Below are positions 2,905 through 10,294 of a stretch of DNA of 49,274 nt, piece by piece. The position numbers and the translations under genes were made by a program. The stretch lies in assembly GCA_902384455.1 (NCBI GenBank), contig CABMCB010000053.1:1-49274 (forward strand), given 5' to 3'. How positions within the stretch are numbered: position 1 is the first letter of the stretch; the number at the start of each line of letters is the position of its first letter. The notes under the pieces are model-generated. The model saw nothing but the letters and a program-made list of their open reading frames with translations. It did not search any database and was not told the DNA's origin. This DNA comes from an uncultured archaeon. GTDB taxonomy: Archaea > Altiarchaeota > Altiarchaeia > IMC4 > SCGC-AAA252-I15.

Positions 2905-3711
2905 TTATTTCGCGGCGTTCTTCAGTTTTTTTGTGTAGTCGGAGAGTTCTTCGGCGAGCTTCTTTTTGCTTTGGGAGTTTTTTTGGATTATTGCGACAAG
3001 TGCGCTTCCGACTATTGCGGCGTCCGCCCCTGATGCTATGACTTCTTTGACGTGCAGGGGTGTTGTGACGCCGAATCCGACTGCGACTGGAACTTTGGGT
3101 TTTGCCGCCTTTATTCTGCCTACGTACTCGGGGAGTTCTTTGTTTACTGCCTTTTTCTCGCCGGTTGTTCCCAGGTGGCTTACCGCGTATATGAATCCGC
3201 CTGCTTTTTGGACTACGGCCTTAAGGCGTTTGTCGGGTGTTGTTGGGGCGGTAAGCAGTATCAGGTTTCTCCCGTTTTTCCTTAGCGCCTTCATCAGAGG
3301 CTCCGCTTATTCAAGGGGTATGTCCGGGCAGATTAATCCGTCTATTCCCGCCGTCTTCATGTCTGACGCGAATTTTTCAAGCCCGCGCTTAAGGACGAGG
3401 TTGTAGTAAGTGAGGCAGACAAGCGGGGTCTTAGGGTGCTTCTCGTGAACCTTGGATACGAACTTGAAGTACCTGTCGGGGGTCATGCCCGCGTTCAAAG
3501 CCCTTTGTCCTGCCGCCTGAATCGTTGGTCCGTCCGCTACGGGGTCGGAAAAAGGCAGCCCCAGCTCAAGCACGTCCGCGCCGCCTTCTATTACCGCAGA
3601 CGCCGCAATCAAGCTTTTGCTTTCATCGGGGTCGCCGGCGATTATGAATGCGATTAAACCGCCCTCACTCTTCTTTTTCAGCGCAATAAGCGTTTTGGTG
3701 AGACTGCTCAC
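2905..3711 (-). pseudogene. trpA: Tryptophan synthase alpha chain interrupted by one in-frame TAA at 3307-3309 (nonsense allele or sequencing error)
   Basis: ELGLPFSDPVADGPTIQ in the 5' half and VGFGV...GADAAIVGSALV in the 3' half, in the same frame; junction reads PDIPLE*AEPLMKAL. Confidence 0.85.
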
Positions 3712-5505: not shown

Positions 5506-6278
5506 GGCGCCGCAGTAACAATGCTCCTGACTGCCTGCGCAGGGTCAGGCGAATCCATGAAATGATTGCCCACAAGAAGCCCGTACGCCCCCTCTTTCAT
5601 AAGCCGGCGAGCATCCTCCGGACCAGACACCCCAGACAAAGCCAGCACCTTAGACCTAGGCGGAAACAACTTCTTCACCGCAGAAAAAACATTAGGATTA
5701 ATCTGCAACGTAGACAAATCCCTGCTGTTAACCCCAAAAAGAGGACTACCAGAATCAACCACCGCATTAATTTTATCCGAAGAATTAAACGTAGCATCCA
5801 CCTCCACAATCGGAGTGAGATTCAGCTTAAACGCCTCCTGAACAAGAAACTTAATTTCATGCGGCCTCAAAATCCGAGCCATAATCAACACCGCATCCGC
5901 GCCGTAAGCGGCCGCCTCATACAGCTGGAACTCGTCCAAAATGAAGTCCTTGCGCATCACAGGCACAGGCACGGAAGACTTGATGTCAGACAACAAAGAC
6001 AGGCGGCCTTGGAAATAGCGCGGCTCGGTCAAGACGCTTATTGCTGCTGCTCCGCCTCTCACGCACGCCGACACGTAGGGTATGCTTGCGGTCGTCCTCC
6101 TTGCTTTCCCGGGCGAAGCCGGCTTGTATTCGGCTATCACCGGATTCAGGTTTCTCCTGCGGACGCTCTCTAAGGCGGCAGTCAGATTTCTTTTTTCTTT
6201 AGCGCCTCTCACGCGCTCCCGGGTTGACGCCACAACGTCGTCGAGGAAGGACATATTCAGTTGAAACGGGAATTTCAC
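5502..6278 (-). CDS. trpC: Indole-3-glycerol phosphate synthase (start GTG 6278 or ATG 6254)
   Basis: IAEYKPASP, ISVLTEPRYFQG, MRKDFILDEFQ, GVNSRDL; operon position. Confidence 0.92.
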   Translation of the reverse strand: MKFPFQLNMSFLDDVVASTRERVRGAKEKRNLTAALESVRRRNLNPVIAEYKPASPGKARRTTASIPYVSACVRGGAAAISVLTEPRYFQGRLSLLSDIKSSVPVPVMRKDFILDEFQLYEAAAYGADAVLIMARILRPHEIKFLVQEAFKLNLTPIVEVDATFNSSDKINAVVDSGSPLFGVNSRDLSTLQINPNVFSAVKKLFPPRSKVLALSGVSGPEDARRLMKEGAYGLLVGNHFMDSPDPAQAVRSIVTAAP

Positions 6279-7696
6279 CGGCTTGCTTTAGCCGACTTGA
6301 ATCGTTTGTTGAACTCTATGTACTCGTTGAGCTTCTCAAGCGCCTTCCCATCAGAAAGGACATTCCGCGCCTTAGTCACTCCGTCGGCAAGATACTTTGC
6401 CTTCCCGCCGGCAACAATCGCAGCCGCAGCATTAAGCAGGACTACATCTCTTCTTACGCCAGTGTCTTCGCCCGAGAGTATGCCCCTCAGAATTTGAGCG
6501 TTCTCCTGCGGATTCCCTCCCGCAAGGTCCTGTATGTTAGCCCTCTTCAGTCCGAAACCGTCCGGCTGGATGGAATAAGTGCGTATGACACCTTCCGCCA
6601 AATCCGCCACCTTAGTTTCCCCGCACGTGCTGAACTCGTCAAGACCCGGCTCACCATAGACGACGAAAGCCCGCTGCACATGCAGCATCTTAAGGACTTC
6701 AGAAACAGGCCTCAAAAGCTGCGGCTCATAGACGCCGATGACGTGAGCCTGAGCGCCGGCAGGATTCGACAGGGGACCCAGTATGTTGAACAGAGTTTTC
6801 ACCCCCAGACTTTTGCGCGCGGGCATGACATGCTTCATTGCGGTGTGGTAGGCCGGAGCAAAAATAAACCCAAGACCCACGTACCTGATGCTGTCTTCAA
6901 CCTGCTCAGGAGGCATGTCGATGGGCACGCCCAACGCCTCCAAAACGTCTGCGCTCCCGCTTCTGCTGCTTACTCCGCGGTTCCCGTGCTTAGCTATGGG
7001 AACTCCGGCGGCAGCCGCAATAAACATGCTCGTAGTCGAAATGTTGAACGTCCCAGCGTTGTCTCCGCCAGTCCCGCAAACATCCACAAGAACATCATTA
7101 ACCACCGGCTTGACGCTAACCGCATTATCACGCATGAAAGAAGCCGACGCAGCAATCTCCTCAGGAGTCGGACCCTTAACCGAAAGAGCCATCAAATAAC
7201 CCGCAATCTCAGCGTCCGACGCCCTACCGCTCATAATCTGAGCCATAGCCGCCTGCGCCTCAGCATAAGTCAAATCATACCTGCGCGACAAACGCTCCAA
7301 ATAAGGCTTAAGCACATGAGAATGAACCTTCACAGGCAAAACATCAGAAGAAGGAACAACCTGCGAACCAGAAGAAACATCCGGCAAAACAACCCCGCCA
7401 ACAGAAGAAACATCCTGCGCAACAACCTTCCTAGGACGACCCCTACGCCGAACACCCAACAAACCCACAACCTCAACCTTACGCGGCCTACCAACACGGC
7501 GAACCCCGCGATCTACAGAGCCCACCCTGCGTGCGACAGACTTAGGCGGCCTTCCCCTGCGTTTTTGCGTGCTGTTTGTTTTGCGTGTGGGTTTGCTGGT
7601 TTTTTTCAGCGCGTGTTTTTTTCTGGCCGCTTTTGGTTTGGATTCTTTTTTTGCGCGGTTTTTTCCTTTTGTTTGGCGTGTTTTTCGTTTCTTCAT
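6275..7696 (-). CDS. trpD: Anthranilate phosphoribosyltransferase with ~127-aa basic N-terminal extension
   Basis: DVCGTGGD, FNIST, KHGNRGVSSRSGSADVLEALG, NILGPLSNP, GLDE; ATG overlaps the trpG stop (ATGA). Confidence 0.95.
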   Translation of the reverse strand: MKKRKTRQTKGKNRAKKESKPKAARKKHALKKTSKPTRKTNSTQKRRGRPPKSVARRVGSVDRGVRRVGRPRKVEVVGLLGVRRRGRPRKVVAQDVSSVGGVVLPDVSSGSQVVPSSDVLPVKVHSHVLKPYLERLSRRYDLTYAEAQAAMAQIMSGRASDAEIAGYLMALSVKGPTPEEIAASASFMRDNAVSVKPVVNDVLVDVCGTGGDNAGTFNISTTSMFIAAAAGVPIAKHGNRGVSSRSGSADVLEALGVPIDMPPEQVEDSIRYVGLGFIFAPAYHTAMKHVMPARKSLGVKTLFNILGPLSNPAGAQAHVIGVYEPQLLRPVSEVLKMLHVQRAFVVYGEPGLDEFSTCGETKVADLAEGVIRTYSIQPDGFGLKRANIQDLAGGNPQENAQILRGILSGEDTGVRRDVVLLNAAAAIVAGGKAKYLADGVTKARNVLSDGKALEKLNEYIEFNKRFKSAKASR

Positions 7697-8286
7697 TTTT
7701 TGATTGCGAGGAAGTTTTGTATTATCCGCATGCCTTGCGGCGTCAGTATGCTTTCCGGGTGGAATTGCACTCCATATATAGGATAGTCTTTGTGGCTTAA
7801 ACCCATTATCTCATTGTCGTCTCTGCTTGTGGCGGTTACTTTAAGGCACTTTGGTAGGTTTTTTTGGTCTACTACGAGGCTGTGATAGCGGGTTGCGGTG
7901 AGCGGTGTTGGTATTCCTGCGAGCACTCCTTTTTGGTCGTGGTCTATGAGGCTTGTTTTTCCGTGCTTAAGCGTGTGAGCGCGTCGGATTTTGCCTCCGT
8001 ACACGTAGCCGATGCACTGGTGGCCTAAGCATACGCCTAAAGTGGGTATTTCAGGGCCCAATTTTTTTATGACCTCGTTGCTTAAGCCTGCGTCCTGAGG
8101 CGCTTTGGGGCCGGGACTTATTACTATGTGGGTTACGTCATGGGTTGCGAGCAATTCTTCCACGGCCTTGTAGGGTTGGGTGTTTTCTATCACCAGGGGG
8201 TTTCCTTTCTGCACTCCCACGTATTGAACTAGGTTGTAGACGAAGCTGTCTATGTTGTCTATGAACAATGTTGTTTGCTTTTTCAT
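7693..8286 (-). CDS. trpG: Anthranilate synthase component II (glutamine amidotransferase)
   Basis: IDNIDSFVYNL, ISPGP, LGVCLGHQ, TRYHSL, GVQFHPES. Confidence 0.96.
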   Translation of the reverse strand: MKKQTTLFIDNIDSFVYNLVQYVGVQKGNPLVIENTQPYKAVEELLATHDVTHIVISPGPKAPQDAGLSNEVIKKLGPEIPTLGVCLGHQCIGYVYGGKIRRAHTLKHGKTSLIDHDQKGVLAGIPTPLTATRYHSLVVDQKNLPKCLKVTATSRDDNEIMGLSHKDYPIYGVQFHPESILTPQGMRIIQNFLAIKK

Positions 8287-9707
8287 TGTCTGTTGTTTAC
8301 GGCGGCAAGAAGTGCCCCCGCCTTGTTGAGCGTTTCTTCAAATTCCCTTCTTGGGTCGCTGTCGGCCACTATTCCCGCGCCTGCCTGAACAGTCGCCTTT
8401 CCGTTTTCTATCACCACTGTGCGGATTGTTATGGCGGTGTCTATGTTTCCGTCTGCGCTCAGGTATCCTACGGCTCCCGCGTATATTCCCCGCCTTGTGG
8501 GTTCAAGTTCTTCTATGATTTCCATCGCCCTTACCTTGGGCGCTCCGCTCACGGTGCCCGCAGGGAAAATGCTTTGAAGGGCGTCAATTGAGTCTTTACC
8601 TTCTGCAAGCGTCCCTTCGACCTCGCTGACTATGTGCTGAACGTGACTGTATTTTTCAGGCCGCATGAACTTGGTGACTTCGACGCTCCCGTAATCGCAT
8701 ACTCTGCCCAAGTCGTTTCTGCCCAAATCCACGAGCATAACGTGTTCTGCGCACTCCTTCTCGTCGGACAGCATCTCGCGCTCAAGGAGCGCGTCTTCCT
8801 GGCGGGTTTTGCCGCGAGGCCTAGTTCCGGCGATTGGGTAAGTTAGGGCTTTTTTGCCTTCGACCCGCACGAGCATTTCGGGGCTTGCTCCGATTACTTG
8901 GCGGTCGCCGAAGTCAAGAAAGTACATGTAGGGGCTGGGGTTATGCTGCTTTAGGTGGTGGTACACGCGCAGTTGGTCGCCCGAATATTCGGTCGTGAGT
9001 CTTTGGGATAATACTGCCTGAAATATGTCTCCCGCCTTTATGTATTGCTTTGCCTGCCTTACTGACTCCTCGTATTCATGGCGGGTCACGTTTGATTGAG
9101 CCTCGGGTTGCTCTAATGAATTTTCCTGCGATGGGATGCCGGGCAGCTTAGACAGTCTTGATGCTATTTCCATGAGCCGACCGCGGATTTCTTCCTCGTC
9201 GATTTCACGCGGGTCTCCGAAGTGGTTCTCGGTGATATATGCGACCTGCTTTTTGTGGTCGTAAATGATGTTGTTTTTTGCCAGAAGAAAATGGGCGTCA
9301 GGATGATTTAAGTCGTCTTTAGCGCGATTAGGCAGATTGACGTGGTAGCGGACTAAGTCGTAGGCCAAGTATCCGGTGAGGCCGCCTGTGAATCGTGCCA
9401 GAGGTGAGCCGCCTAGTTTGAGGCTTTTTGTTATTGAGCGCAGGGCTTGTAGGGGTTCGCCGGGTATTTTTATGTTTTTGAGTGAGGGCTCTTTTGTCGT
9501 GTATTGCGCCTTTCCGTCTTTGATTTTCAGTTCGGCTGTTGGATTGAATCCTATGAAGCTGTAGCGGGCCATTTTCTCCCCTCCGTCGCTTGATTCCAAG
9601 AGGTATGTTCCGGGTTTTTTCAAAATGGCGTATGCTGCTTCCGGCGGATGTATGGCCACTGTTATGTGGATGGGTGTGATGGTAGTTGCTTCTTTTTTTG
9701 TTTTCAT
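8283..9707 (-). CDS. trpE: Anthranilate synthase component I
   Basis: LLES (Trp feedback site), [38 protein letters not shown]. Confidence 0.96.
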
Positions 9708-9756
9708 CTTGGAGTGCGTTCTTTGCCAAGTATAGGATTACACTAACTAAGAATCA

Positions 9757-9792
9757 TGTATATAAAAATACATTTATGTACAGTTTTATACA
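9757..9792. promoter_or_regulatory. Four TRP-box-like hexamers overlapping the predicted trpE TATA box (putative TrpY operator)
   Basis: TGTATA 9757, AATACA 9767, TGTACA 9777, TATACA 9787, each 4 bp apart; minus-strand TTTATATA at about 9759-9766. Confidence 0.75.
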
Positions 9793-9796
9793 TAAA

Positions 9797-10294
9797 TTAT
9801 GCTAAAACAACGACTTCCTTAACGCCCTCAACCTTAAGCACAACATCAATCAAATCTCTTGGCACAGGCTTAGACGTAACAATCAAAAGACGAGCATCAG
9901 TAAACATCGGGTCATCAGCAATAACCTGACGAACAGAAATCCCGGCGTCAGCCACAATACGAGTCACCCCCGCAATAATGCCGGACGCAGAAGCGTCCTT
10001 AGGCACAATCTCAAGAGCCCCATAACCCAAAGCCCCCGCAGCATCCCTCAACAAAGGAGTCGTCGAAATACGAGTAAAAATATCCACCAAAAGAGGCTTC
10101 TTAAGAATCTCCTCAACAGCACCCACAACAACACGCCTATCAACGCCAACCACAGCACCAACCTTCGCATAAGCAAGCTCAACACCACCAGCAAAAAGAC
10201 CGCCATCCGCAGAAACACGTATACCATGACGCAACAAGAACTCGGCCACCTTCAACTGGCCTTTTTTACCGCCAAATTCGCCTTCTAAGTCCAT
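9797..10294 (-). CDS. trpY: TrpY-like regulator of amino acid metabolism (HTH plus ACT domain)
   Basis: VAEFLLRHGIRV...VGVDRRVV N-terminus and GIIAGVTRIVADAGISVRQVIADDP ACT domain; directly upstream of trpE. Confidence 0.8.
   Translation of the reverse strand: MDLEGEFGGKKGQLKVAEFLLRHGIRVSADGGLFAGGVELAYAKVGAVVGVDRRVVVGAVEEILKKPLLVDIFTRISTTPLLRDAAGALGYGALEIVPKDASASGIIAGVTRIVADAGISVRQVIADDPMFTDARLLIVTSKPVPRDLIDVVLKVEGVKEVVVLA

Follow-up and report, generated by a model that had tools for sequence, protein, structure and literature searches.

The archaeal trpD gene analysed here, which encodes anthranilate phosphoribosyltransferase, carries an in-frame insertion of 384 nt between its start codon and an intact catalytic core. 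The insertion is entered through an ATGA junction with trpG, encodes three GRP motifs and has a coding-type base pattern. Our preferred reading, to which we assign a probability of roughly 0.45 on the strength of sequence comparison and structure prediction, is that the insertion encodes a translated, selected and disordered tail, basic in character, which would hold a TrpD dimer that is in other respects normal on DNA without much regard to sequence. Should the tail indeed bind DNA, an in-frame insertion would have given a metabolic enzyme a chromatin-type module, in a clean and young case for which 52 relatives still offer the tail-less ancestral TrpD for comparison. The finding also suggests a broader tendency of the order, in which HMGA-like and H1-like tails are found on TFB and Nth. 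Its importance is limited by the confinement of the tail to one lineage, by the lack of support for a regulatory circuit and by a lesser but appreciable chance that the tail accreted neutrally. The window, that is the whole stretch of 49,274 nucleotides, corresponds to contig C53; the genome, 2.41 Mb in size, is 92% complete and the sole representative of its genus in our set.

The insertion and its motifs

The trpD open reading frame (7696..6275, minus strand) encodes 473 aa, beginning MKKRKTRQTKGKNRAKKESKPKAARKK, and scores 425 bits against the TrpD model TIGR01245 (cut-off 199). Upstream of V128 (7315) it contains 127 aa; alignment with relatives assigns codons 2-129 (7310..7693, minus strand) to the insertion, directly behind the ancestral ATG. 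The first in-frame ATG of the relatives' trpD aligns to L129 in 26 of 34 loci, and the -4 ATGA overlap of trpG and trpD is common to 14 of the 25 relatives having trpG upstream. The simplest history that we infer takes the ATG at 7696 for the original start codon, with 128 codons inserted behind it. The first-pass annotation had described an extension of about 127 aa ahead of the TrpD core; the extension is real, and is better read as codons 2-129 inserted behind the old start.

The tail, encoded throughout on the minus strand, opens with a Lys-rich, H1-like segment (aa 1-44, 7565..7696) that lies inside an A/C-rich strand block. Up to residue 52 it contains 25 Lys and Arg (17 K, 8 R), a single D/E and only 4 Ala and 4 Pro, which makes it weakly PAKK-like. 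AT-hook 1, KRRGRPPK (aa 45-52, 7541..7564), with an RGR core, is followed by the AT-hook-like motif 2, RRVGRPRK (aa 66-73, 7478..7501), where GRP lacks the first Arg (VGRP), and by AT-hook 3, RRRGRPRK (aa 83-90, 7427..7450), again with an RGR core, which uses other synonymous codons and contains no GGCC. A Ser/Val/Pro/Asp-rich linker (aa 91-129, 7310..7426) places about 39 residues between the hooks and the enzyme. As described in PMC11354804, an AT-hook consists of a GRP core with basic flanks, and an RGR core enters the minor groove. The three peptides are thus present as the first-pass annotation had listed them, and all three have GRP with basic flanks; its description of three AT-hook-like motifs needs amending for the second, which has VGR in place of the RGR core of motifs 1 and 3.

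A scan with the Pfam AT_hook profile (PF02178), as had been suggested, gave 21.0 bits for the whole TrpD and 28.2 bits for the extension alone (cut-off 17.4), with three matching stretches. When nucleotides were shuffled within 30-nt blocks, at least two motifs were obtained in 0 of 100,000 shuffles, and amino-acid shuffles yielded three motifs in 0 of 100,000, as against 5.7% of local shuffles that kept an open frame of the tail's length. Consequently, the motifs are beyond chance and the open frame is by itself weak evidence. Among six-frame ORFs of the genome, 23 bear the motif, trpD being the sole one with more than one; a profile scan of the genome contigs with PF02178 was disregarded as evidence of absence because it missed the trpD locus itself. 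A single-sequence model of aa 1-172 predicted no secondary structure in aa 1-125 save one 3-residue turn. Sequence and model support the view that the tail carries features of a nucleic-acid-binding disordered region. The epithet histone-H1-like, used in the first-pass annotation, is apt as far as Lys-richness and the predicted unfolded state go, and does not extend to homology: no linker-histone or H1-like Pfam family matched TrpD at E≤10. With HMGA the tail shares three GRP motifs, basic flanks and a predicted unfolded chain; it differs in being fused to an enzyme, in having only two RGR cores and no acidic segment, and in showing no detectable homology. The HMGA-type sequence TPKRPRGRPKK given in PMC11354804 has a Pro before RGR, which the TrpD tail does not.

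Probable translation of the tail and possible selection upon it

Translation from the ATG at 7696 is very likely judging from the sequence, in agreement with the first-pass annotation. This ATG and the trpG stop have 4 nt in common (ATGA, 7693..7696, minus strand), as that annotation had noted, and -4 is the commonest overlap in the genome (165 of 1670 same-strand neighbours). PMC6728339 reports strict coupling for 13 of 14 overlapping gene pairs examined. Codons 2-140 of trpD contain no further ATG. In codons 51-127, third positions are G/T in 69 of 77 cases, and first and second positions in 97 of 154 (p=1.1e-5); for codons 67-127, which were picked after inspection, the values are 60 of 61 and 77 of 122 (p=1.3e-8), and the TrpD core has a third-position G/T pattern like that of codons 67-127. 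A control set of 33 skewed windows, all strictly non-coding, contained none with p≤1e-4. A looser intergenic control was set aside because it contained uncalled genes; 14 of its 153 windows were as periodic as the tail, and the top 15 all had an open frame. In the Lys-rich half of the tail the third-position signal is nil (p=0.52).

An internal start, at GTG 7315 or GTG 7333, would leave the upstream frame untranslated or expressed as a minor form. The linker does contain a possible start at GTG 7315, codon 128, which is one codon off the start position of the relatives and has a weak SD-like word (GAAGGT) about 10 nt upstream, and the 5.7% of local shuffles with an equally long open frame are in keeping with an untranslated tail. 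We nonetheless hold an internal start to be quite improbable, since the ancestral ATGA junction has been retained at 7696, codons 51-127 show the coding pattern, a second strain (X1) has the tail without indels, and SD words are rare in the genome (GGAGG in 97 of 1628 genes).

Strain X1 (run X1) is represented by two contigs, 93% and 96% identical at a depth of about 2, which span both ends of the tail, one joining trpG and the tail (7527-7765), the other the tail and the core (7219-7434). The two are unjoined, leaving 7435-7526 (hook 2 and most of hook 3) uncovered. They cover 289 of the 381 nt of the tail, with 18 listed substitutions and no in-frame stop; 20 of the 25 X1 differences are listed, the remaining 5 being near contig ends. 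Runs X2-X4 leave the tail uncovered. In the core, the listed differences between X1 and the source genome number two, both synonymous. Codons 1-46 have 7 changes, about 4 synonymous and 3 non-synonymous (pN/pS about 0.2, p about 0.04), and linker codons 99-127 have about 3 synonymous and 8 non-synonymous changes (pN/pS about 1.0). Small as these numbers are, they agree with a basic region under constraint that is attached by a linker evolving neutrally.

A serious alternative is that the tail is translated and near-neutral, a low-complexity accretion after the start codon that has been tolerated. It would have stayed in frame solely because TrpD depends on the coupled ATG, and its Lys-rich and Val/Gly/Arg-rich halves would stem from the genome's mosaic of A/C-rich and G/T-rich strand blocks. 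Third positions along the tail are A/C-rich, then mixed, then almost pure G/T near the GGCC of codon 70 (motif 2), and the amino-acid composition switches where the strand skew does. GGCC occurs at tail codons 23, 49 and 70 (7628, 7551 and 7488, minus strand), being found inside two of the three GRP motifs. The whole proteome shifts with strand skew, more weakly than the tail does (V 6.1 vs 11.3%, K 6.3 vs 4.3%), so that the H1-like appearance of the tail may in large part be mutational. Restriction of the tail to one lineage, the neutral pN/pS of the linker and a nonsense codon in trpA also favor accretion. Several features are nevertheless hard to reconcile with it. The basic part has a pN/pS of about 0.2, A/C has been retained at codon positions 1-2 and lost at position 3, hook 3 preserves GRPRK through other codons without GGCC, and three motifs are not obtained by shuffling. 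Moreover, positive charge survives the skew switch, passing from the Lys-led aa 1-52 to the Arg-led aa 53-92 (2 K, 12 R). Hooks 2 and 3 are identical at 10 of 12 residues and 24 of 36 bases (pS 0.56, pN 0.24); Arg is encoded by AGG in one hook, by CGT in the other. This comparison carries a bias, the alignment of the hooks having been made on the similarity of their peptides. On balance, accretion appears unlikely, though its chance is not small.

The trpA gene (2905..3711, minus strand) has an in-frame TAA at codon 135 (3309-3307), a position at which Glu is found in 25 of 25 relatives, and the assembly yielded no further trpA copy. The TAA may reflect a fault in the assembly or a recent loss, and the tryptophan pathway may accordingly be relaxed in the source strain. 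It is an unlikely explanation of the tail because the latter is also present in a diverged strain, and its third positions have reached equilibrium.

The trp promoter, the enzyme core and a possible mode of action

On the minus strand the operon reads trpY-trpE-G-D-C-F-B-A. Between trpE and trpA each gene overlaps the next by 4 or 8 nt, at all six junctions; trpG lies at 7693..8286 and trpE at 8283..9707. The trpY-like regulator gene (9797..10294, minus strand; NF053754, 149 bits, under the cut-off of 180) is co-directional with trpE, and not divergent from it; a trpY-like gene was detected in 38 of the order's 49 genomes. The 89 nt upstream of trpE (9708-9796) are 72% AT, a value reached by 70 of 27,038 genome windows, which bears out the earlier description of the trp promoter as AT-rich. 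This region contains three TGTACA-like hexamers that resemble TRP boxes and have a 10-nt period (9767..9792, minus strand), predicted to be a likely TrpY operator, and the spacers between them are A/T tracts. The hexamers were likened to TGTACA, which we take to be the consensus; no such consensus was found in the literature searched. Paired boxes occur in all five loci where trpE follows trpY (L200, L202, L204, L207 and the window) and near none of 25 others. In three of the four relatives concerned (G030, G032, G046) TrpD is tail-less, and in the fourth no TrpD was found.

It had been proposed from the sequence that the hooks bind the AT-rich trp promoter and that TrpD senses PRPP or anthranilate there together with TrpY. 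The high AT content, the A/T-tract spacers and the adjoining trpY-like gene would suit such a sensor. The model is weak, since the same operator stands in relatives without a tailed TrpD; in addition, the hooks confer little sequence specificity, the linker evolves fast and neutrally, the net charge of the core is like that of relatives, and the protein is not YbiB. We therefore regard a promoter-bound sensor as very improbable. As reported in PMC6737238, TrpY binds TRP boxes in M. thermautotrophicus and does not bind the trp promoter in T. kodakarensis.

The catalytic core of TrpD (6275..7309, minus strand) contains GTGGD (208), NISTT (218), KHGN (236), the R of PARK (292-295) and the DE of GLDE (351-354), and the TIGR01245 match spans model positions 1-329 of 330. 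Aligned to solved TrpDs, the GTGGD PRPP loop, KHGN, the anthranilate Arg and the Asp-Glu metal ligands are all present; the roles of the PRPP, anthranilate and metal-binding motifs, and dimer formation through helices of the N-terminal domain, are described in PMC9835598. This conservation suggests that TrpD has retained catalytic activity and forms a homodimer. The core net charge is -3.2 vs -3.1 +/- 5.8 in 35 relatives (a comparison of net charge only). The protein thus resembles monofunctional TrpD (TIGR01245, a type III phosphoribosyltransferase) in its full core, its motifs, its operon position and its 53-59% identity to the best relatives, and departs from it in length (473 aa vs the 330-380 aa given in PMC9835598) and in the 128-aa basic insertion after Met1.

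YbiB (TrpD2), a DNA-binding protein that shares a fold family with TrpD, had been invoked as an analogy. It is described in PMC10123104 as binding nucleic acid without sequence preference via grooves of the folded dimer, as having no PRPP motif and no catalysis, and as less than 20% identical to TrpD. The TrpD studied here keeps GTGGD, and its charge resides in the added tail. YbiB identity was rejected (NF006005, 52.8 bits vs a cut-off of 185), E being 2.7e-99 to solved TrpD and 4.7e-7 to YbiB. The analogy breaks down on these grounds.

In the DNA-tether reading that we prefer, ribosomes ending trpG would restart at the overlapping ATG and produce the 473-aa TrpD. Because TrpD dimerises by N-terminal-domain helices, two tails, with six GRP motifs and two Lys-rich segments between them, would exit near the dimer axis. 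The RGR cores would enter AT-rich minor grooves and the Lys-rich part would lie on the backbone, so that a dimer could bridge two DNA segments. The fast-evolving linker would decouple binding from catalysis, which would make the enzyme a scaffold or a passenger and not a sensor. As the operon is likely TrpY-repressed, DNA-bound TrpD would increase when tryptophan is scarce.

The nearest functional precedent for the tail is CarD of Myxococcus xanthus, likewise a prokaryotic protein in which a folded domain is joined to an unfolded region with RGRP repeats. According to PMC4374960, this region binds AT-rich minor grooves and merely enhances activity, and a study cited there is reported to have found HMGA-like and H1-like domains to be functionally equivalent. 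CarD differs in being a regulator that binds RNA polymerase, and in having its tail at the C-terminus together with an acidic segment; TrpD is a biosynthetic enzyme whose tail is N-terminal.

The tail might instead bind RNA or another polyanion, which could, for instance, keep TrpD on ribosomes or on trp mRNA as a translational feedback, or drive condensate formation. AT-hooks and extended AT-hooks can bind RNA (as stated in PMC11354804), the tail is highly basic and predicted to be disordered, and a fully overlapped operon makes translation a plausible control point. Comparable tails of the order, however, are on the DNA-handling proteins TFB and Nth, and we judge this alternative improbable.

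Distribution of the tail and basic tails elsewhere in the order

The closest named TrpD homologues are labelled Candidatus Altiarchaeota. TrpD was found in 53 of 61 phylum genomes, and the tail in none of the 52 TrpDs other than that of the source genome, a count in which three matches were without the N-terminus and 13 genomes were judged by frame length alone (341-393 aa). The extension was missing from TrpD at the loci of 29 relatives (one cut by a contig edge) and at 7 further loci. An open trpD frame of more than 410 aa occurs only in the source genome and in G027, where the sole in-frame ATG is two codons ahead of the core. Among 123 TrpD protein hits, none of them with the tail, 114 have fewer than 15 extra residues, one has 16 and 8 are TrpG-TrpD fusions. 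Fusion was ruled out for the locus studied here, where trpG has its own stop and is in a different frame. Absence from relatives, which the first-pass annotation had named as refuting its reading, is thus observed at family, order and phylum level; one close strain has the extension.

No homologues of the tail were found among proteins of 30-259 aa and 260-828 aa, nor among 1.84 billion representatives, the sole search that covered proteins longer than 828 aa. The Atlas gave no feature match to the tail and a TM of at most 0.36, and a search for a donor inside the genome returned short low-complexity matches only (best E 0.001). The literature searched, to which subscription titles were largely external, contained no description of an AT-hook TrpD or of an archaeal AT-hook N-terminal extension on TrpD. 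By sequence, the tail appears to be young and very local, confined to one genus-level lineage. Metagenomic data offered 80 distant trpD loci (43-51% identity), 42 with at least 60 open codons upstream; these look like GC-rich shadow frames, unlike the tail.

A two-hook DNA pattern matched 14 of 49 genomes, about the rate of the reversed control, and the only true multi-hook ORFs behind it were L147/L161 (TFB) and the trpD locus. Basic terminal tails were surveyed in 497 ORFs of relatives (88 families, 216 loci), a sample drawn from around a few query genes and hence not unbiased. Three cases were found, all on TFB (3 of the TFBs of 29 relatives), two Lys-rich and N-terminal and one C-terminal. 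The C-terminal one, on the TFB at L147:475-1680 (G023:C21; tailed TFB L166), is a 91-aa HMGA-like extension with four RGRP motifs, seen in 1 of 30 TFB loci. On TFBs L181 (G022:C95) and L176 (G011:C180) the extension is N-terminal, Lys-rich and H1-like, measuring about 180 aa in the former and about 80 aa in the latter. In the source genome, Nth (Endonuclease III; L138:1720-2526, G000:C71:222219-223025) has a 55-aa PAKK tail that is missing in 29 relatives, and its core, with a net charge of +1.3, is less basic than that of the relatives (+9.6 +/- 3.6), as though the tail made up for the difference.

These sequences suggest that basic tails recur in the order, mostly on DNA-handling proteins (TFB, Nth), with TrpD as an odd host. 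The tailed TFBs (L166, L176, L181) and Nth (L138) share with TrpD a lineage-specific basic tail at a terminus of a conserved protein; they differ in that the hosts already act on DNA, and no sequence homology to the TrpD tail was detected. A bolder and rather unlikely reading is that the order repeatedly and independently grows HMGA-like or H1-like tails on TFB, Nth and TrpD, TrpD having become a starvation-induced, six-hook, DNA-bridging chromatin protein. If true, TrpD would be a newborn enzyme-scaffolded nucleoid protein that couples amino-acid status to chromosome structure. The source genome also encodes histone and Alba, so that the tail fills no obvious gap.

Other basic proteins were observed in passing. 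L139:1507-2058 (G000:C18:55006-55557) is Lys/Pro/Ala-rich, has no Pfam match and looks like a stand-alone H1-like protein; L140, L141 and L143 are Lys/Pro/Ala-rich or basic-ended proteins, also with no Pfam match. L142 (G000:C69:17019-19328) is a P4-type primase and L146 (G000:C68:29278-30126) a sigma-70-like protein, and the contigs that carry them are possibly viral or mis-binned.
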